Assembly: GCA_964016885.1 (NCBI GenBank)
Contig: CAXHJY010000154.1
Span: forward strand, 62,001 to 126,000
Length of the DNA stretch: 64,000 bases
From: Eledone cirrhosa
Lineage: Eukaryota
Direction of reading: 5' to 3'
A program made the translations under genes and the position numbers. The notes under the pieces are model-generated. The model worked only from the letters and a program-made list of their open reading frames with translations. It was not told the DNA's origin and made no database searches. Below are positions 5,346 to 57,734 of this stretch, piece after piece. Numbering within the stretch: the stretch's first letter is position 1; each line of letters starts with the position of its first letter.

Positions 5346-6199
5346 TCTGACTGGATTTGCGACCAGTAGATAGCATTAGCAATTGGAAAGACCGATGTAA
5401 ACATTGTGTCCTCGGTTTGATTTGTTGGGCTCCACTCCATTCCTTAAGTGAGTGAGGTGTGGGATCTTGTTGATCGACTGTCGATATATATATGCGTGTA
5501 TGTGTGTAAATATATAGACAGATAGATATTAAATAGGCACAAACATGGCTGTGTGGTTAAGATGTTCACTTTGCAACCATGCATTTTTGAAATTAGTCCC
5601 TCTGCATAGAGAGATTTTGAAATATAACTTTTTCTTTATTAAGCTGGTGTTTGGGACATAAATTAACAAGTGTTCTTACATAAAATTGTGACAAGGTTTT
5701 AAGATGAATATAAATATTTAAAAACTAACAGTTTTGTTTTATAGAACCAATGGTGGTTTCAGGCAGTCTGGTATAAAAAAAAAATATATATATATATATG
5801 TTTGGATATCTTTGACTCTGTTAGACATTTTTATTTTATATTCAGAATATATGTAATAGAGTTGAGTTTTATTTAACTCTTTAGCATTTACATTACCCTA
5901 TATCTACTATTATAATTTTGTGGTAAAGGCTATACCTTACATAATTATCTCACATAATATTGAATCTATGAGATTTTGATATTATTTATTTGGTGTACAA
6001 TACCTTAACATTATTATGAGCAGCTAGTTACGGCCAGTTTGAGCAGAAAGAGGTGAGAGAATTATCACTGGATATGGCCGGTTTATATGTTAAAGGGTTA
6101 AAAGAATCTTTCGAAATTGTTATTATTCACATATATTATTTGATAGTTTTGTAACAGTTTGGACAAAGACTAAAAATACTGTAACTAAAATCGTTGAAG

Positions 6200-17007: not shown

Positions 17008-17469
17008 TAACCCTTTCCTTATCATGTTTTAATGAAATAATGCTACAAATGATTTTCAAAACATTCTGAAAATAAATAATCAAGAATTTGGAAGGATTTA
17101 ATAATATAGATAACATTTCTCATTATTAAGCTGTTTTTTTTTTGGAGCATAACTTAACAAAGGTTTTTACATAAAGTTATGATGGAAGGTTTTTAGATAA
17201 ATATAAACACTTTAACCCTTTCATTACCATATTTCTAACAAGTGACACCATCTACAATTTTCAAATCATTTAAAAAATAATCAAGAATTTGGAAGCATTT
17301 AGTAATATAACTTGTTTATTAAGCTGGTGTTTGAAGCATAACTCAACAAAGGTTCTTGCATAAAATTACAATAGAAATATCTTTAGTTAAATATAAATGC
17401 AATAAAATACACAACATTGTATCATCAAAGCAGGAACAGTTTCAGGTGGTTTGGTATCAAAGAGATTAA
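17008..17469 (+). mobile_element. Two adjacent or nested P1 piggyBac-like MITEs
   Basis: Second copy 17216-17465 (TTAA-CCCTTTCATTACCA...TGGTATCAAAGAGA-TTAA) starts at an internal TTAA of the first copy. Confidence 0.78.
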
Positions 17470-19440: not shown

Positions 19441-19635
19441 AATTTCAAGAACTCCATCATGGTTCTTCCACAAATTCAGGGGAGGGGGAGGTTAAAAATT
19501 GCCATAGCCTGCAAAAAAAAAAAAGCAAAAATGCCTATTTTTTTTTCAAGCCCCCGTATATATGTTTTTGTGTATATCATATAATATGTATGTGTGTGTA
19601 TGTATATGTAATATCATATTATATGATTTTGATGA

Positions 19636-20008
19636 TAATTGTTTCTACTTTTGGCACAAGGCCAGCAATTATCCCAGTGCATTACTGGTACTTTATTTTA
19701 ATTACCCCATAGGGATGAAAGGCAAAGTTAACCTCAGTGGGATATGAACTGAGACCGTAAAGGACCATAACTCTATGCTGCAAAGCATAGCGTCCGACCC
19801 TCTACCGATACTGCCAATCAACCGCCCTTAAATAATTGTTTCTACTTTAGGCACAAGGCCAGCAATTACCCAGTGCATTACTGGTACTTTATTTTATCGA
19901 CCCCGTAAGGATGAAAGGCAAAGTCCACCTCGGCGGGATTTGAACTCAGATCGTAAAGGGACGTAACTATGCTGGAAAGCATGGCGTCCGACTCTCTACC
20001 GCCCTTAA
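19636..20008 (-). mobile_element. Two head-to-tail SINE family A copies
   Basis: 19636-19830 and 19831-20008 each match 11036-11226. Confidence 0.9.
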
Positions 20009-28429: not shown

Positions 28430-29720
28430 AGTAGAGCATCCACATGGGTTATTTTTTTCCCTGCCTCTACAGATTTTACCCTCAGTAGGTTGCCAGAACA
28501 CTAATTTGTTTGCCACCTCGTTATTGTGTCTCATGCACTGGCCTGTGAGTCACGTCCTACTTTATTGAACATTTAATGAAACTTTTGGAAGTTCATAATA
28601 AAGTTCTGCATTTGTTACATGGTTTCTCCATGACACATGGAATGCCATTCTCACCATTCTGGTGTAGCATCTATCTAATTGTATTTCTAAGGCTTTTATA
28701 AGTGTCCATATTTCTGCTCCACAAAGCAAAACAGATCCTACTGTAGCCAAGCCTTCTCAAGCCAAACCTACTCAAACCTTCAGTCTTCTTGATAGCTTGG
28801 AGCTCCATATCTTTCTTACTGAGAATTTTTCTGAACTTTGGTCCCAGGATCCTAGATATTTAAAGTTATCAACAACTTTCAATGTTTCTCCACATTTTAC
28901 CATTATATCAGCAGGTGCATTATGATTGAAGACTTGCAATTCCATTTTCTTCCTATTGCAATGCAATCCAGCCTTTGCTGGCTCCTGCTCTAATCTGCTT
29001 AACACTTCTTCTGCCTGATCTATCTCTTCAGTTAGCAAGGCCAGGTCATCTGCAAAGTCTAGATCTGTAACAGTAGTTGCAGGATGTGGTCTGCTTCTTT
29101 GTTTGTGTAGTATGAAGCCAAACTCTATTTCTGTCATCATATGTAGTCCAAAACAATTATAAAAAGGAAAGGGGCTCGAGTGTTGCCTTGCAGGACTCTT
29201 GCTATTATTTTAAAATAGTTGATTTCATCATCATGACTAATAACTCTTACTCTGGTGCCTTCATACATTTTGCTAATTGCTCCAAGTAATTCTTGTGTGA
29301 TTCCATAAGCTTTTAGAATTTTCATCATCTTTCCTCTGTGCACAGAGTGAAAAGCTTTCTTGAAGTCTACATAGATAATGATGATGATGATACTATAAAA
29401 TAGTTCTGCATCAAAATCACAGATAATGATGTCCTTTCTCTTGTGACTATTCACATCTTCAATCACTAACATGTGAAACAATTTTGATTTGGCCTAAGGA
29501 GGTCATCAATTGTGGGTTGGATCCTATTCAATATCATCTTATTTACTGTCTTGGCAACAATAGACGATAGGCTAATCCTTTGATAATTCCCAGTTTCACT
29601 TAGGGCTCCAGATTTGGGTAGGGAGAGCATGTCAATTTAGGACCATAGCTTGGGTTTCAGGTTCTCATTTAGAAGACTGTTAGTAAATTTGAGAATTATG
29701 CTATCTAGATGACTTAATTA
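28430..29720 (-). mobile_element. Degenerate RTE-clade LINE of a different family
   Basis: VDFKKAFHSVHR, VLQGNTRAPFLF, DLDFADDLALL, VDNFKYLGS, LLCGAEIW; no PHD insert. Confidence 0.9.
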
Positions 29721-35760: not shown

Positions 35761-36735
35761 TATCCCCCCTCCATACACACGCACACATGTATATCATGAT
35801 TCATATGGTCTGAGTTCAAATCCCACCAAGGTTAATTTTGCCTTTCATCCTTACGGGGTCGATAAAATAAAGTACCAGTAATACACTGTGATAATTGCTG
35901 GCCTTGTGCCAATAGTAGAAACAATTATTCTATGTACTATACATGCACCTTTGATGAGTTGTAGTGCACCTGAGCACTGTACACAATAATTTCATTATAT
36001 TAAACATAGAATATATGAGCAAGACATAGTTCTCCAAGCAGTCTGGTCTCAGACTTTGATGACCTGTCCAATCCATGTTAGTGTGAGAAATGGCTATAAA
36101 ATGATGATTATGCCATTGTTGTTGCTGTTGTCGCCATTATGTGTTCAGATGATTAAACATGGTCATCTGTCGAATTTGCATATTAGCTGCATATTACTTG
36201 TAAACTCTATATAATTCTATTTTCTAATATTTATTTCATCCTAATTCCATCTGTTTACAATATTTTACAATTGATATTTCTTTATATCAGAAAGATAAGC
36301 TCTGCAGTAGTTCTTTGAGACAGAAAATGCTTCTTCTATATTCATAAGGAAAGCAAATTTGCCATTGTTGATGTCTGCAAAGCTTTAACTGTGTTTGGCA
36401 AGGAAATATCCAGCAAATTTTCTATAAATCATAATTATAACTTTAATCTGATGCTTGTTCTGGGCTGACATTTCTTAACATTTTCTAAACATCATCTCCA
36501 TCGAAGCATTGTTTGTGGAACTCTCTTCAGCTGTTTTAAAGTGTTTATGTTTATAAAAAACACCTTCCATCATAATTTTCTGTCATAACCTATGTTAAGT
36601 TATGTTCAAAACACTAGTTTAATAATGAGAAAATTATGTTACTAAGTCCTTCCAAATTCCTGATTATTTTCAGTTATTTGAAAATCATAGGCAGTGTCTG
36701 ATTAGAAATATGGTAATGAAAGGGTTAAAGATCTT

Positions 36736-42838: not shown

Positions 42839-42951
42839 AAAGGCCTATACTATCGCTTGCCCGGTTGCCTTTCGATATATGATGGATGGATGGATGGACT
42901 GCGGAATCCTGGAGAGTGGAAGAGAGAGAAAAATCTGGACGCTCAGCGAGA

Positions 42952-45900
42952 ATGCCAAAGATAAAGACAAATTCACCTCGTGGACAAGAATGCGAGCACT
43001 CCTCTTTGTTTCGACCGCGGACGGCTAACATAACCCCATCTCCCCCAGCCCCCCACCGCCTCCACCCTCCAAACGCAATCCAAAACTTCAGAGTTGGTAC
43101 CATAAATGTAGGCACCCTAAAGGGTCGCGCTAACGAGGTTGTAGAAATGCTTGAACGTAAGGAGGTCGATGTTTGTTGTATTCAAGAGACCAGGTGGAGG
43201 GGTGGGTCTGCTAGATTCATTGAGGGTAAAAAACGATGTTATAAGCTTTTCTGGGTGGGAAACGACGATGGGCTGGGTGGAGTAGGAATCATGGTAGCAG
43301 AAAAGTGGGCAGATAAGATAATAGACGTAAATAGAGTGAACGACAGAATAATTAAAATAAGACTTGTCCTAAATAGAACTACGGTGACAGTAATATCTGC
43401 GTACGCACCCCAATCCGGACTGCCTGGCACTATAAAAGACAGATTCTATGAGACACTGATGCTCACTACCTCCCAAATATCCGACAGTGACTATATAATT
43501 ATTGCAGGCGACCTAAATGGTCACGTTGGACAACATTGTGACGGCTACGACGAAATCCATGGAGGCTATGGGTTTGGTACTAGAAATGAGGAAGGCTCCA
43601 GAATCCTGGAATTCTGTGACGCAAATAACCTAACTATCTGTAACACTAACTTCAAAAAACGTGACAATCACCTATAGATCTGGGGAACACACAAGCCAGG
43701 TAGATTATATCCTTACCAGAAGACGTGACAGAGTGTCTGTTGTAAACACTAAATCCCTCCCCCATGAAGAATGCACCTCCCAACATAGACTGATAATTAG
43801 CGACCTCATAGTCAGGACGAGACGTACTCGACAGCAGAAGAGGACTATCCTCAGGAGAAAAATATGGAAGCTAAAGGACCCCACAGCCAGAAATAAATTT
43901 CAAAGCATATTACTTGATGCTTTCGACAGTAAGGAAGAGCATTTAGAGTCGGACAATATAGAGGGACAGTGGGAATTTCTGAAAGCAAACTTGCTGATGG
44001 CGACAGGCGAAGTCTGTGGCTGGAGCAGGCCTGTAGGCAGGAGAAGAGTAACATGGTGGTGGAACAGTAAGGTGGAGGGGTCAATTAAGGCCAAAAAGCA
44101 GGCTTGGAAAGTATGGCGGGATGGGGGAAGTAGAGAAGACTATCAAGTGGCCAGGAGGGAAGCTAGGAGACAAGTGTACTTAGCAAGAAGGGAAGCAGAG
44201 GAAAGAAAGTTCAAGCATGTTCTACAACGCGAGGACCAAAAACGTGAGGTGTTCAGGATTGCTAGGCAATGCGTCAAGGAAAACCGTGATATTGTCGGGG
44301 AGAAGTGTGTACTTAATGATGACGGCGTACTTGCCATCACCGACGCTGATAAGAAGGTAGCTTGGAAGTGTCACTATGAAAGGCTACTAAATGAGGAGAA
44401 TAAATGGGAGAAAGACAGTCTCCCCCACATCGACCCAATAGAGGGACCAGCAGTGTTAGTCGAGGGGAGTATAATAAGTAAGGCAATCAAGGATATGAAG
44501 ACGGGTAAGGCGGCTGGGCCTTCGGAAATAGTTGCTGAGATGCTGAAGGCATCTGGCACGGTGGGACACACCATGGTCACCCGCATAGTTAACCAAGTCG
44601 TACAGAATGGGGTTGTTCCGAAGGACTGGCATAGCAGCATCATCGTTAACTGTTATAAGGGTAAAGGAGACGCCCTAGATAGGAGTAACTATAGAGGCAT
44701 TAAATTAATCGACCAGGTCATGAAGGTCACGGAAAAAGTAATAGCGCAACTAATCAGAGAGAGAATTGACCTAGATGAAATGCAGTTCGGGTTTGTGTCA
44801 GGCAAAAGTACCACAGACGCTCTTTTCATTGTACGACAACTACAGGAGAAGTACCTAGCTAAAGGTAAACCCCTCTACTTAGCTTTTGTCGACTTGGAGA
44901 AAACCTTCGACAGAGTCCCCCGCTCCATTATCTGGTGGGCTCTTAGAAAACTAGGTGTTGACAAATGGCTTGTGAGAGCTATACAAGCCATGTATAAAGA
45001 AACAGTCAGCAAGGTTAGAATTAACAACGAATATAGTGAAGAGTTTAGCGTAAAAGTTGGCGTCCATCATGTCTCTGTTCTCAGCCCCCTACTATTTATT
45101 ATTGCCCTTCAGGCTATAACAGAGGAGTTCAAGACCGGCTGCCCATGGGAACTCCTATACGCAGACGACCTGACACTCATAGCTGAATCAATGGCCGAGC
45201 TAGAGAAGAAATTCCAAACATGGAAGCATGGCCTAGAATCAAAAGGACTTAAAATTAACCTGGCTAAGACTAAAGTTTTAGTTTGTAGGAAAGAAAATAA
45301 GGCGGCGGTCCCTTCTGGGAAATGGTCATGCTCAGTGTGTAGGAAAGGCGTAGATAGAAACTCCATTTTATGTCCTAAATGCAAAGTATGGGTGCATAAA
45401 AGATGTAGTGGGATCACAGGTAAGCTAACTAAGAACATAGATTTTACATGTGGCCGATGCTCTGGTGTAATAAGTAGCAGCAAGTGACCACAAAATACTA
45501 GCTCTTTCAATTGCGCAGAGGGTTCTATAGAAATAGTGAACAGCTTCCGTTACCTGGGCGATAAAATCAGCAGTGGGGGAGGGTGCTCTGAAAGTACAGT
45601 AGCTAGAGTCAGAACTGGTTGGAAAAAGTTCAGAGAGCTTATACCACTATTACCTGCTAAAGGGTTCTCCCTAAAAATGAAAGGCAGGTTGTACGATGCC
45701 TGCATACGAACAGCAATGTTGCATGGCAGTGAGACCTGGGCATTGTGTGCAGAGGATATACGCAGACTAGAGAGGAACGAAGCTTGCATGCTCCGCTGGA
45801 TGTGTAACAGTAATATACGTGAACGGCAAAGCATAAACGAACTAAGGAAAAAATTAGAAATAAGAGGAATCAGATGTTGTTTACTCGAGAGAAGGCTACG

Positions 45901-46114
45901 TTGGTATGGACACGTGATGCGCATGAAAGTCGATAGCTGTATAACAAAGTGCAGGGCAATAAAGATAGACGGTAGCCACGGAATAGGCAGACCTAGAAAA
46001 ACCTGGGACGAGCTGATAAACTCCGACCTCACACACTTACACTTCTCCAAGACAATGTCACTGGACCGAGACCTTTGGCGGTACTCAGTAACAGAGAAGA
46101 CCCGCCTTACCTAA
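42952..46114 (+). pseudogene. RTE polyprotein: APE endonuclease, RT with PHD finger, C-terminal domain; one frameshift and one stop
   Basis: GTINVGTL, IQETRW, SAYAPQ, AGDLNGH, VDYIL, SQHR; NYRGIKL, QFGF, VDLEKTFD, LLYADD, FRYLG, GRPRKTW. Frameshift near 43670 and TGA at 45485-45487. Confidence 0.95.
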
Positions 46115-51869: not shown

Positions 51870-52430
51870 CATTCCCACAACTGGTGCAGCCAGTCATTGG
51901 GGTGCCTCTCTAGATGCTTTTGTACTTAGCTGTTGCCACTGGTCTCTATTCTCATACGTAGAAGGGTTTTGATGTTGTCAGACTAGGATTTTCTTTATCT
52001 GCCTCTTCTTCATCCTCCCTCGACTATGCCCTGTAGGATGGTTTTAGAAGGAATTATGACAGGATACATGACTATACCAGGCAAGCTTCCATCTTTTCAC
52101 CATTGCAAGGGGTGGTTCCTGTCTGCCAGCATATTTGTTATCTAGCTGCCTGACAAAGTTGTTTGTTTTGTACTCTCTGTATAGGATGTGTAGCATCCTT
52201 CTGAAGCACTTGTGCTTGAATGACTGGATTCTTTGTTTCATGTTAGCTGTGAGAGTCCAACTCTTACAACCATACAAAAGGATCAAAGTCACCAAGGACT
52301 TGTTTAATTTGAGCTTTGTTGGAAAACTGAAGGAATTGCTTTTCCATATGACATTCAACTTTTCTATGGCAGAAATGACTAGGACAGGTCTTGTCAGTAT
52401 CTCCTTTTGAGATTTGCCATCTTTGGTCAG
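51870..52430 (-). mobile_element. RTE-clade C-terminal fragment (third family)
   Basis: IWKSNSFSFPTKLKL..SLVTLILLYGCKSWTL..RIQSFKHKCFRRML..KLAWYSHV. Confidence 0.85.
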
Positions 52431-54215
52431 AGTGAATTCTAGGTGGATTTCCTGAGACCCACCAGACTAATTCAGTGGGAAGCCATAGACAGTGCTGTGT
52501 GCCATTTACAATCACCTTCACCCTGTAAAATAGTTGTGTAGGTGACACGACAAAAAGCACCCAGTACTCACTGTAAATGAGGTTAGCATCAGGAAGGGCA
52601 TCCTGCTGTAGAAACCAAGCCAAAATCACTTCTGCATGAGCAAGTCATGTTCACCTGACCTAGCATTGCCCACAATAGGACAACTCATCTAACCCATGCT
52701 AGCATGAAAAAATGGACGTAAAACAGTGATGATGATGACTGTAGCAGCTTCTGTGGATTGGGGAAATTCATATCTTATTTTACTGTCAATTATTTCTAGT
52801 TATAGCTTCTAACTGTGCAATGGACTGACATCCTGACTTGTACTCTCAGTTGCTTAACATCAATAGAACTGGGATGAGTTCTGGCCTGATGAGACTCCAG
52901 GCAAAGAGTAAGAAGAGTATTTCTACCTTCATTATATATTTCTAGTGAATAAATAAAGGTGTGTCATGACAGGGTGATAGCAAAAAGAAAAGCAAATATA
53001 AAAAAAAAAAATAATGTATATTTTAGAATGTATATATTTATCTAAAACTCTTCCATCACACTTTTATACTCTATGCTCCAAACACCAACTTAATAACGAG
53101 AAAGTTATATTACTAAATTATAGGCAGTGTCTTTCATTAGAATAATGATAATGAAAGGGTTAAAAAATTACCCTGAACCATTAATTCTTACTTTCTTGTA
53201 CCACATGTGACAGCGTTAGTAAGATATCCTTAAAAAGTATAAAACAGCACAATGATTGCATCACATGAAAAATTAAAGCATTAACCCTAATACTGCAAAT
53301 TTTCACAATGATCTGTCCATTTGTAAAGATACTAGAAACATTCGAATTAACAAACCTCTTGTTAGATATTTTTACAGAATGTTAAGATGACTTCTGTTAT
53401 ACATGACCTCTGTTAGTTTTGCAAATTGCATAATCCAACACGGGTCTGGAATCAAGGGTGCCAAAAAATCAGTGGTATATTTGTTATATTGATGGGATTG
53501 AAAGTGTGTGCATCCTGTAAGTTTGATTGGCTAATTTCTCCTTCATATTTTTTTCTGTCTTTCCTGCTTGCTTATCTTCATAGATTAACACTAGATAGTG
53601 TTAATCCATGAAGAACAAGGAGGAAAGCTGTGAAAATAGCAGAGTATAAGCAGCATGAATGATGTGTTTTGTATAAGTTATTATTTAGCTTTAAGTCAAC
53701 TCTGAATAAGTAGATCTTCAATGAAAGTCATTCTAGCCATGGCCATCCCATTCTTAAGGTTGTCTTGAACTGCTTTGTTAAATGCATTTTCCTTTTATTT
53801 AACCTTTTTGTTACCATATTTCTAATGAAGTACACTGACTATGAATTTTAAATCATTTTGAAAATAATCAAGCATCTGAAAGGATTCAGTAATATAACTT
53901 TTTCTTTGTTAAGCTGGTGTTTGGTACGTAACTTAGAAATGGTTAAACGGAAAAAATGAAACGTAATTTCATTTCTCACTCTTAGTACGGCTGTTACTTA
54001 AATATTAGTATGTATACGTACATACATATATGTATACAGACGTACAGTAGTATGTATATATATATATATACATACATCCACACATATATATATGTATGTA
54101 TGGATTCACCGAACATTTATTATAATGCTCGGTGTGTTTGTAAACAAACATCCCGAATTAAGCCGTACAGTGTCTCGCAACCATCGTTGCTCATTTGTTC
54201 AACTCTGACAAAGGA

Positions 54216-54258
54216 ACGCTGTACTAGTTTCAAGCTTATTAGCTATCGTCAGCAACGT
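54216..54258 (-). ncRNA. Minimal type I hammerhead ribozyme, copy 1
   Basis: ACGTTG-CTGACGA-tAGCT aata AGCTt-GAAAC-TA-GTA|CAGCGT: 6-bp stem I, 4-bp stem II, palindromic ACTAGT stem III; predicted cut between 54222 and 54221. Confidence 0.88.
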
Positions 54259-54644
54259 ATACCTTCCTGCCAGATGATTGAACGTCTGAAAGTATATACT
54301 TTCCTTATGCATATTAACAGCTGAGCAGCCTAATTTGCATATCGAGTGAGTTAATCGGCTGGGGTACCGAAAACGATAAACGGAAAAAATGAAACAAAAT
54401 TTCATTTCTCACTCTTAGTACGGTTGTTACTTAAATATAAGTATGTATACGTACATACATATATGTATACAGACGTACAGTAGTATGTATATATATATAC
54501 ATACATGCACACATATATATATGTACGTATGGATTCACCAAACATTTATTATAATGCTCGGTGTGTTTGTAAACAAACATCCCGAATTAAGCCGTACAGT
54601 GTCTAGCAACCATCGTTGCTCATTTGTTCAACCCTGACAAAGGA

Positions 54645-54687
54645 ACGCTGTACTAGTTTCAAGCTTATTAGCTATCGTCAGCAACGT
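54645..54687 (-). ncRNA. Minimal type I hammerhead ribozyme, copy 2 (identical to copy 1)
   Basis: Same 43-nt sequence; predicted cut between 54651 and 54650. Confidence 0.88.
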
Positions 54688-55194
54688 ATACCTTATACTT
54701 AAAAATGGTTGTTACATAGAATTATGAGGGAAGGTTTTTACATAAATATAAACAATTTAAAAAAAAAAAACACTTTAGTATCATAAAACCTGGTTTAGGC
54801 TATCAAAAGGGTTATGACAGTAGGTTATGATTTGAGGGGCATTTCACTGCTATTTTTGGCAAGTGGAGTAACCATGTAAAGGCTTCCTTGTTGAGTTGTG
54901 TGCACGTGAGTTTGGCATGTGTTGTGTAGAACACGAGGTTGCAGATGCTTTTTTTTTTTTTTGTGGATTTTCATAATTCTGATACTAGGATATAGATATA
55001 CTCTGAGCAGGGGGTAGAGATTTAATGTAATTGATGTAGTTAAGTGCATGGAAGATGGGGAAATTATAATGTTTCATCTATTAATAGGCAACATGAATGT
55101 GAGGTTCAGGAATAATGGCAATAAACTGCTGCAATGTATTCAATATTTTATTGTCTGTTTGGCAGAAATGCTGTATAAAGTGTGCATGATATGA

Positions 55195-55226
<32 letters not shown>

Positions 55227-55446
55227 GATAGAGAGGAGGAGAGAGAGAATGTTAATTATTGGGTAATAATTTCAACATAAACTGGCTTCATATAACTTAC
55301 ACTTAAATAGTGGCCACACACAAACAAGATCAATAGATACGAAGACAAAATATTTGTGTGATCCCCTATGACAATTACATTAGTGGTAGAATTGTGCTTA
55401 GGAATTTTTACTGGATTACAAGGAAAAATCAGTTCAGAATGTTGGC

Positions 55447-55635
55447 ATTATTTCTACTTTTGACACAAGGCCAGCAATTACCTCAGTGCATTACTGGTAC
55501 TTTATTTTATCGACCCCGCAAGGATGAAAGGTAAAGTTAACCTCGGCGGGATTTGAACTCAGAATGGCAAGGGCCGTAACTCTATGCGTCAAAGCATGGT
55601 GCCCGACCCTCTACCATTACTTCCAATCCACCGCA
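55447..55635 (-). mobile_element. SINE family A copy
   Basis: Colinear with 11036-11226. Confidence 0.88.
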
Positions 55636-56770
55636 TTATTAGTAATAATGATCACAAATGACTGACAGCATCAAATAATTTTCAATTAATTTTGAAAATA
55701 ATGAAGAATTTAGAGGTATTTAGTAATATAATAAACTTTCTCTAACAGGTTTTTACATAAAGTTATGATGGAAGGGTTTTATATATCTATAAACATTTTA
55801 AAACAGCTTTGAATTCTAGAATGAAGGGCAGTTTCAGGCAGTTTGGAATCAAAAGGGTTAAGTCTCTCTTCTTAGTGACAGCCATATGTTTTTCATAGAG
55901 AGAGATCTACCAGTTACTTTATCCCTGTCACACATTAGTGGCCTCTTTTCTCCCTTGGATTGGAAGTTTTATGTCATCAAATCCAAGAGATAGCTGGATG
56001 CTTGCAGCCTATATTGACAGGGATCTTCAACCAATATTCCATTAATTCTATTGTTCTCCAATATTTGGTTATACCTCCCACATTCTTCCTTCCATACTTT
56101 CTCCTTCTTTTTAGAGGGTCGTATCAGAAGCAGCCAGCTTCAAATGGTCCACCTGGATCATTGAAACCAACTGAACATGATTGTTATCCAACCATTGCCC
56201 TGGAAATCTGACCTGTGATTCTTTCCTTAGATATGCTTATTTTCAAATTTAATTGAAGTACATAGGCAGTGTATTCCATTAGAAATACGGTGAAAATGGG
56301 GTTAATGGTCTACTTACTGATACTTCTAATCATACATTTCTATTCAGATGATACCACCCTTCACCCTCCTTAAACATCCAATCTAAACATCTCTTATCAA
56401 ACTTGCACTGTTTCTATGAATAGTAACCTTGAAAAGATTCTTCAATGGAAGCACAATAACTTCTGCAACAACACTCAGACACAACTGCTATATACATTTG
56501 AAGAAACAATCTTGCACTACATTCTTTCTATACAGAAACAACATTGTTTTACTGCTCATGCATCTGGAAAGCTTCTATTGTTGCAAGACACACAAACAAC
56601 CTAGACCAAGGGTTCCCCACATTTGTCATCCTGCTTACACTCATAAAAACCTTTTGAAAGTAAATTCACCCCCAACTATGTTTTGTTCAGTAATTTGAAT
56701 TTTTATGCAACAAACAACAAAGTAGAAAATTTTTAAATACTATTTTTAGACATCATTATTTTAGGCTTAT

Positions 56771-56955
56771 AAGGTGGATTGCCAGTATCGGTAGAGGGTC
56801 GGACGTCATGCTTTGACGCATAGAGTTACAGCCCTTTCCATTCTGAGTTCAAATCTCGCCGAGGTCAACTTTGCCTTTCATCCTTACGGGGTCGATAAAA
56901 TAAAGTACCAGTAATGTACTGGGTAATTGCTGGCCTTGTGCCAAAAGTAGAAATA
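56771..56955 (+). mobile_element. SINE family A copy with TSD
   Basis: Box A and box B present; flanking direct repeat ATTATTTTAGGCTTATAAG on both sides. Confidence 0.9.
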
Positions 56956-57734
56956 ATTATTTTAGGCTTATAAGAGAATAGTTTGGCAGAATAATTAGAG
57001 TGTTGAGCAAAAGACTTTGCAGCATTTAGTTATGGCTCTTTAGATTCTGTGTTCAAATGACATCGAGGTCAACTTTGCTTCTCATCCTTTCACGGTCAAT
57101 AAAATAAGGTACTAGTCAAGTAGTGGAGTCAATATAATTAACTTTCCCCTTAAATTGCTAGTTTTCTTCTGTTAAAATGAAAAACTATTATTTTAGGTTA
57201 TTTTAGTGGTACAAAACAATGTTGCATCACTCACTTATGAATAACTAATGATAAACATACCTGTACTGGAACCACAGTCAATATAAAACAATTAATGAGA
57301 CTCACACACATCATTAAGTCCAAAATAGTAGAAAGAAAACTAATTAGTATTTTAATAAGCAAAATATGCCTACTTAAAATTTCTTCTCAACTTTAGAGTG
57401 TTTTAATTATAATTAGAAAAATATACACTTCCAGAATCAGCAAGTTTATCCTCTGGGGTTAAATTTACTTTGTTTTGATACCTTGGGTAAGACCAAAACA
57501 AAACAAAGACCATTTAGCTCTTGTCTCTACTTCTACTACTATTAGAGTGGCTTTTACTCCTCTAAACTATCAAGTTGCAAACCCACTCCACCCAAGCCTG
57601 CATGTTACACCCTTTTTGTCTAATGTCATCTCTACTGAGCTTTAGCCTAGATTCCACACTAAACATATTGCCTTAAAAAGGATCCCATGATGAATATGGA
57701 GTCTATCATGGGGCCTGTAAAGCTAACTTCTGCT

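Follow-up and report, generated by a model that had tools for sequence, protein, structure and literature searches.

A family of tandem hammerhead retrozymes in Eledone cirrhosa, very probably copied in trans by a Penelope-like enzyme

A 64,000-nt stretch of the Eledone cirrhosa genome (contig CAXHJY010000154.1, positions 62,001 to 126,000; hereafter the window) holds an insert of tandem non-coding units that each carry a hammerhead ribozyme motif. This raises the question of which enzyme copies such an element, and from which form of its RNA. For animal retrozymes in general, both the enzyme that spreads them and the circle as template have so far been proposed rather than shown. We conclude that the element is very probably a non-autonomous non-LTR retrozyme copied in trans by a Penelope-like (Neptune-type) enzyme that starts at two fixed internal sites.

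The window insert spans approximately 751 nt (44 + 429 + 278), equal to 1.75 units, and 2 further bases lie at 54695-54696. A repeat search returned direct repeats in a 429-nt register (54054-54265 versus 54483-54694, 97%) and in a 433-nt register (53936-54101 versus 54369-54534, 90%). The two units are 9 substitutions and one 4-nt indel apart over approximately 275 compared positions. The features of the insert and its target, in window positions, are:

53799..53944, plus strand: left portion of the insertion target, a TTAA-flanked, piggyBac-like MITE of approximately 250 bp
53931..53944, plus strand: left copy of the 14-bp target site duplication (TSD), its last base common to the element end
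53944..54004, minus strand: 61-nt "tail" that holds a hairpin and runs to monomer position 274, the long 3′ end; putative reverse transcription start for the window insertion
54005..54012, minus strand: short 3′ end site, at monomer position 213, of the terminal unit; the window copy has one substitution here
53945..54221, minus strand: 3′-terminal partial unit, monomer positions 1-274, with 4 additional nt within the TA-rich hairpin
54216..54258, minus strand: hammerhead 2, type I, predicted cut at 54222/54221
54222..54650, minus strand: full 429-nt monomer from cut to cut, predicted to be strongly self-paired
54291..54300, minus strand: TATA-like motif 77 nt upstream of the cut, with a possible promoter role
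54333..54340, minus strand: octamer ATGCAAAT, 119 nt upstream of the cut, a candidate promoter motif
54438..54530, minus strand: long TA-rich hairpin, then the full unit's own short 3′ end site at 54438-54445
54645..54687, minus strand: hammerhead 1, with no difference from hammerhead 2; cut predicted at 54651/54650
54651..54696, minus strand: 5′-truncated remnant (44 nt) of the preceding unit and 2 extra bases, at the 5′ junction
54697..54710, plus strand: right copy of the TSD, with one mismatch to the left copy
54711..54815, plus strand: right part of the interrupted MITE

The host MITE, whose ends read TTAA/CC...GG/TTA, exists in many copies (1,894 candidates in the genome). The 14-mer at the insertion site is present once in 7 of 14 other MITE copies (L221, L223, L224, L225, L227, L228, and L232), the remaining 7 being diverged, interrupted, or mis-aligned at this site. 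Since copies that read through the site hold the 14-mer once, the 14-bp repeat is a true TSD. The window copy has one arm with a long end, inserted into an atypical, non-microsatellite target, and it has neither poly(A) nor an added 3′ repeat tail. No open reading frame combining a reverse transcriptase (RT), a CX2-5CxxC linker, and a GIY-YIG domain, as expected of an autonomous Neptune element, was found in the element or the 64-kb window, and no host exon was recognized near the insert among the 10 ORFs scanned.

Other repeats surround the insert. The TTAA-flanked MITE itself recurs across the window as at least 12 more diverged copies or fragments (70-88%), for example at 5613-5748, 17008-17354, 36534-36728, 53021-53163, and 55677-55860. 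A LINE-like remnant on the plus strand (42883-46114) encodes an APE endonuclease, an RT, and a PHD-like finger across frameshifted ORFs, and another RT fragment lies at 28775-29209. We also noted a frequent interspersed repeat of 150-200 bp, probably a SINE, at 55447-55641, near 2040, 11030, 19635-20000, 35810, 49890, and 56770-57107.

A type I hammerhead descriptor matched twice in the whole window, both times on the minus strand (54681 and 54252). Each match consists of a 6-bp stem I, a CUGACGA core, a stem II of a U.U mismatch and 4 bp, GAAA, and a palindromic stem III, with predicted cleavage after GUA and the two cuts 429 nt apart. These results bear out the preliminary description of this locus, which had reported about 1.7 near-identical tandem monomers of approximately 430 bp, each with such a hammerhead, and a 14-bp repeat with one mismatch splitting a piggyBac-like MITE. 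Its classification of the hammerhead as minimal does not stand. The minimal motif of Penelope-like elements has a short helix I (4-5 bp) and lacks helix III and loop 3, whereas the canonical metazoan type I motif has a helix I of 6 bp, a helix II of 4 bp, and a short helix III with a palindromic loop (PMC4209133); by its predicted layout, the window hammerhead is of the canonical kind. A U.U mismatch likewise lies at the base of stem II in the axolotl hammerhead HHR_Amex2, which is active (PMC7229834). The Rfam check that had also been proposed returned no hammerhead family at E ≤ 5 for positions 52000-57000, which leaves the descriptor matches and covariation as the grounds for calling the motif a hammerhead. 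Rfam miRNA matches fell on the TA-rich hairpin under gathering scores and were discarded.

Further copies, which the preliminary description had proposed to seek, are plentiful. In the genome of 3.0 Gb, a 35-letter pattern of the hammerhead core has 22,909 exact matches, compared to 0 for a reversed-pattern control. The best 40 of 1,836 candidates share 97-100% identity with the unit, and older subfamilies at 77-89% identity have units of up to approximately 510 nt, giving a family range of 420-510 nt. The copies are dispersed, tandem non-coding type I hammerhead units without long terminal repeats around an internal region. Among 79 arms from loci taken in genome order, 61 contain one hammerhead and 18 contain two or more, with up to 7 per arm in head-to-tail non-coding units. 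The search pattern itself imposes part of the core conservation among copies; at a stem I pair that the pattern does not cover, 162 copies carry U.G (97), G.U (44), A-U (12), C-G (3), or other combinations (6). Around the cut, a longer closing helix of 18 predicted pairs was scored in 225 copies: 17 of the pairs are canonical in 90-99% of cases, one is poorly supported, and the alignment filter favors the outer pairs.

In a second class of units, the octamer and TATA-like motifs lie 111 and 69 nt upstream of the cut, and the spacing between them is 42 nt in both classes. These motifs may form a promoter, an arrangement that we take to parallel the snRNA-type promoter of newt satellite 2. Retrozyme sequence is also present in contigs from four sequencing runs of four organisms, a result that is silent on ends, strand, and expression. 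At least three further hammerhead motifs belong to other repeat families (L040:1035, L053:7828, L066:2990; L041:25 / L063:2358; L061:6051), some of which may be separate retrozymes.

Folding predictions suggest how the ribozyme might work. The monomer at 54222..54650 folds with z = -8.6, partly owing to the TA-rich hairpin, and its predicted circular fold is 68% paired. Within the monomer, the active hammerhead fold is weak (-1.8 versus -14.2 kcal/mol for the best fold, both predicted), suggesting that cutting would need a dimer or a protein. The palindromic stem III could pair two copies, with a predicted dimer duplex of -6.8 kcal/mol, and dimer cleavage is therefore the mode that we infer for this hammerhead from the models.

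The most informative feature of the family is its two fixed internal 3′ ends, together with the rule by which they are paired. In the hammerhead sense, arms end at one of two sites downstream of the cut, monomer positions 213 (short) and 274 (long), which are 61 nt apart and both finish in TTA directly after a hairpin. In the genome-order sample, 35 of 79 arms have the short end, 34 the long end, and 10 end elsewhere. Genome-wide, exact junctions into (TA)n number 2,989 for the long end and 3,711 for the short end, with 0 for the controls. (TA)n adjoins 42 of 45 long ends, the window copy being an exception. Counts of (TA)n at short ends in that set contained spurious internal matches and were left out. 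The same ends also occur on non-microsatellite targets (the window, L003, and L014), and the site is thus not set by TA pairing alone. The TSDs are 14 bp in the window and 13 bp in L003; at (TA)n targets, TSD length is unreadable.

Pairing was counted over 71 long-end and 100 short-end places, the first on contig C1 and reaching to 82.8 Mb. All 18 head-to-head pairs within 1.5 kb unite a long end with a short one, against an expected fraction of 0.49 (P = 2e-6). Opposite arms, present at 71 of 161 loci, resemble each other more than they do random copies (mean divergence 0.035 versus 0.076; median rank 0.05; rank <0.1 in 42 of 71), a likeness to which shared subfamily or age could contribute.

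The 5′ ends, in contrast to the fixed 3′ ends, are variable. In a set of 80 loci selected for their 3′ end, 53 inserts run through one or more cut sites and 38 exceed one unit; approximately 22 of these 5′ ends are imprecise, lying in a self-complementary hairpin, and 2 lie beyond the fetched region. Not one of the 80 falls at the cut site (positions 1-7). Of the rest, 6 are found 39-60 nt upstream of the cut, and 43 of the 53 inserts that run past a cut continue beyond that distance. By this distribution, the template was not a linear monomer left by cleavage, and it shows no dominant fixed 5′ end. Two patterns did not survive. A clustering of 5′ ends near the predicted start site, seen in a first sample, was not upheld in the loci picked by 3′ end (the same 6 of 80). 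An "A internal, G terminal unit" pattern (10/73 versus 0/35) that hinted at a linear master template was dropped as selection bias, since it was seen only among loci ranked by similarity to an A-carrying query.

In the same genome, a GIY-YIG search scored the best 150 of 10,596 candidates, and we examined 40 loci. Several have RT and GIY-YIG in one frame with a CX4CX2C linker, the type that is a signature of Neptune/Nematis (PMC8557442). Two coding Neptune-type families reproduce the retrozyme pattern of ends. In the L051 family, two 3′ ends enter (TA)n approximately 63 nt apart, and 5 of 5 head-to-head pairs are long plus short. In the L054 family, two 3′ ends also enter (TA)n, 9 of 9 resolved pairs are long plus short with 1 unresolved, and 5,674 exact hammerheads share the design of the retrozyme (U.U at the base of stem II and a palindromic stem III). 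The order of promoter motifs, hammerhead, short end, tail, and long end in the retrozyme mirrors the Neptune pLTRs of this genome. That two Neptune-type families show the same end pattern is the basis for the Penelope-mobilized reading and makes Neptune the likely helper clade.

Loci L051 (G000:C1:145868500-145876500), L052, L056, and L062 belong to a Neptune-type family with a 938-aa open frame. Read by eye, the hammerhead of this family seems to be a variant that has a U3-A8 core, stems I and II of 4 bp, a palindromic CCGG, and a GUA cut; U3-A8 covariation has been described for Schistosoma Cercyon elements (PMC4209133). Retrozyme and Neptune-type ends are often found in one (TA)n tract (L005, L029, L150, L171, L175, L202, and L214), suggesting that these microsatellites act as shared landing sites.

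These similarities raise the question of whether the copies are merely severed pseudo-LTRs of a coding Penelope-like element that bears this terminal repeat. The shared layout speaks for this view, as does the resemblance of Xenopus retrozymes to pLTRs (bioRxiv 10.64898/2026.07.22.740005), yet we consider it quite improbable. Arms with as many as 7 hammerheads are built of head-to-tail non-coding units, and retrozyme sequence forms the element terminus at none of the 40 GIY-YIG loci, two of which carry separate insertions. Penelope sequence is present in 21 of 161 retrozyme loci, and coding sequence is joined directly to a retrozyme in one of them (L197). There, an old retrozyme arm (L197:629-1141; G000:C1:43094620-43096420) meets, with a 3-nt overlap, the endonuclease region and 3′ UTR of an L054/L064-family element that has its own, unrelated 3′ region. 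The remainder of the arm joined to this element was not found in the 7.6 kb searched downstream, and the join may be a template-switch chimera or a nested insertion. That just one of 161 loci shows such a join speaks against the possibility, named in the preliminary description, that all copies are pLTRs on a coding Penelope element, and, with no Penelope ORF in the window, makes the mobilization in trans proposed there most likely. Retrozyme copies beside GIY-YIG ORFs in L061 and L062 were considered as pLTRs and ruled out as separate (TA)n insertions, and a 21-nt match in L031/L038 lies within RT coding sequence and is due to chance. Mobilization by a LINE, or spread at the DNA level through satellite- or microsatellite-associated recombination with the hammerhead incidental, has in its favor the LINE APE and RT remnants in the window and long arrays with signs of DNA-level expansion. 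We regard this as the most improbable of the explanations: the window copy lacks the poly(A) or added 3′ repeat tail, and the two internal 3′ ends, their strict pairing, and the TSDs match Penelope-like families. Counting against the reading as a Penelope-mobilized retrozyme are the Rfam result, the weak active fold of the monomer, the 10 of 79 arms that end elsewhere, and the occurrence of the L197 join, otherwise a point in its favor, at only 1 of 161 loci. So does a comparison of the monomer with the 3′ regions of the 40 Penelope loci examined, which gave no convincing homology (best tail alignment z of approximately 3 in 160 comparisons).

For copying by a Neptune-type enzyme, we envisage the following sequence. 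Tandem units would be transcribed from the octamer and TATA motifs, and their hammerheads, paired as dimers via the palindromic stem III, would cut. A GIY-YIG nuclease would cut both strands of AT-rich DNA approximately 13-14 bp apart, each nick would prime cDNA at one of the two sites, 213 or 274, and the cDNA would continue across the cut-site junction into the preceding unit. Since the template shows no fixed 5′ end, it would be either a ligated circle or a long uncleaved multimer, which we consider about equally probable. The preliminary description had read the insert as a retrozyme footprint whose greater-than-unit length pointed to a circular template. The first part holds, in that a tandem hammerhead repeat was retrotransposed with a TSD; the length does not prove a circle, because partial tandems are a normal product of Penelope-like elements, which also favor (TA)n targets (PMC8557442), and RNA that is unprocessed serves as the main substrate of the anole Penelope-like element in vitro (PMC11167929). 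RNA reads joining 54222 to 54650 would not be diagnostic of circles either, because the identical junction exists in genomic tandem DNA.

The same element and enzyme could therefore work from uncleaved linear multimers transcribed from tandem arrays, with the hammerhead and any circles outside the copying cycle, and we give this account a little less than an even chance. Hammerhead mutants of the anole element inserted normally, and no reads ended at the cut (PMC11167929). The 18 of 79 arms with two or more hammerheads indicate that multimer sources exist. Locus L125 alternates unit variants as ABAB (spacing 420/422) with another variant in the terminal unit, and in one arm of L101, 6 of 7 internal units are of one variant; a dimeric circle or DNA-level duplication could produce such patterns, which are best explained by the latter. 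Against uncleaved multimers stand the conservation, with consistent changes, of the hammerhead and of the rod-closing helix at the cut, and the lack of a clear pile-up of 5′ ends at the predicted start. A circle is made plausible by this conserved ribozyme and closing helix, by the lack of a 5′ boundary, and by overlapping arms from like templates. RNA circles are known in coral, mussel, and axolotl (PMC7229834), which counts for a circular template; cleavage of only 1 of 9 Xenopus dimers in vitro (bioRxiv 10.64898/2026.07.22.740005) counts against it.

In its most specific form, which we offer tentatively and think somewhat doubtful as a whole, a Neptune-type dimer would act on one 429-nt ribozyme-made circle with two adjacent hairpin-UUA sites, cut both target strands, and have each subunit run rolling-circle reverse transcription from its own site. 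Head-to-head arms would then always be long plus short, would overlap the same RNA positions, and would be able to exceed unit length. The observations in favor are the 18 of 18 pairs, the likeness of arms within a locus, the 0 of 80 5′ ends at the cut, and the 38 of 80 longer than one unit. If this were true, with approximately 23,000 hammerheads in the genome, such circles could be plentiful RNAs in cephalopods. The retrozyme life cycle becomes directly testable through the family's thousands of insertion ends, which agree with those of Neptune-type elements in the same genome, and monomer positions 213 and 274 supply exact RNA sites for the existing in vitro Penelope assay. The one-long-one-short rule, which holds for the retrozyme and two coding families, places a quantitative constraint on inverted insertions of Penelope-like elements.

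The kind of element is already known, and its Penelope origin has been argued in a 2026 preprint (bioRxiv 10.64898/2026.07.22.740005). Our literature search found no paper on a cephalopod retrozyme, though the supplement of PMC7229834 may list cephalopod repeats. The giant squid genome paper gives only a count of 235 hammerhead hits (PMC6962438). Like the metazoan non-LTR retrozymes (PMC7229834), the Eledone family is present in thousands of copies, has a canonical type I hammerhead in AT-rich, non-coding tandem units of several hundred bp, has a monomer predicted to be self-paired, and is flanked by TSDs of more than 4 bp. The retrozymes of mussel (350-390 bp), axolotl (330/350 bp), and coral differ from it in unit length, here 420-510 nt, and in that most copies here are dispersed, 5′-truncated, and with one hammerhead (61 of 79 arms). 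Circles and cleavage have been shown for them (PMC7229834), whereas for the Eledone family they are predictions. Penelope-like helpers have been proposed for retrozymes without insertion-end data (PMC7229834).

As in vertebrates, the retrozyme co-occurs with Neptune/Poseidon elements and fits a non-autonomous model; the vertebrate study builds on co-distribution and on pLTR homology in Xenopus and samples no mollusc (bioRxiv 10.64898/2026.07.22.740005). Unlike in Xenopus, we did not find pLTR homology, and the link here is an insertion footprint common to Neptune-type families. That footprint has close precedents. The anole Poseidon element PAc cuts both strands at AT-rich DNA and has two internal RT starts that define a tail (PMC11167929), and Adineta Penelope elements carry a tail on one inverted pLTR (PMC3846280). 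The Eledone family differs from Penelope-like elements in having no ORF, a tail of 61 nt rather than 30-40 nt, and a canonical rather than minimal hammerhead. It shares with them two internal starts downstream of the hammerhead, a tail that one arm may carry, 5′ inversions in head-to-head orientation, 5′ truncation, partial tandems, AT-rich or (TA)n targets, and a TSD of approximately 8-14 bp.
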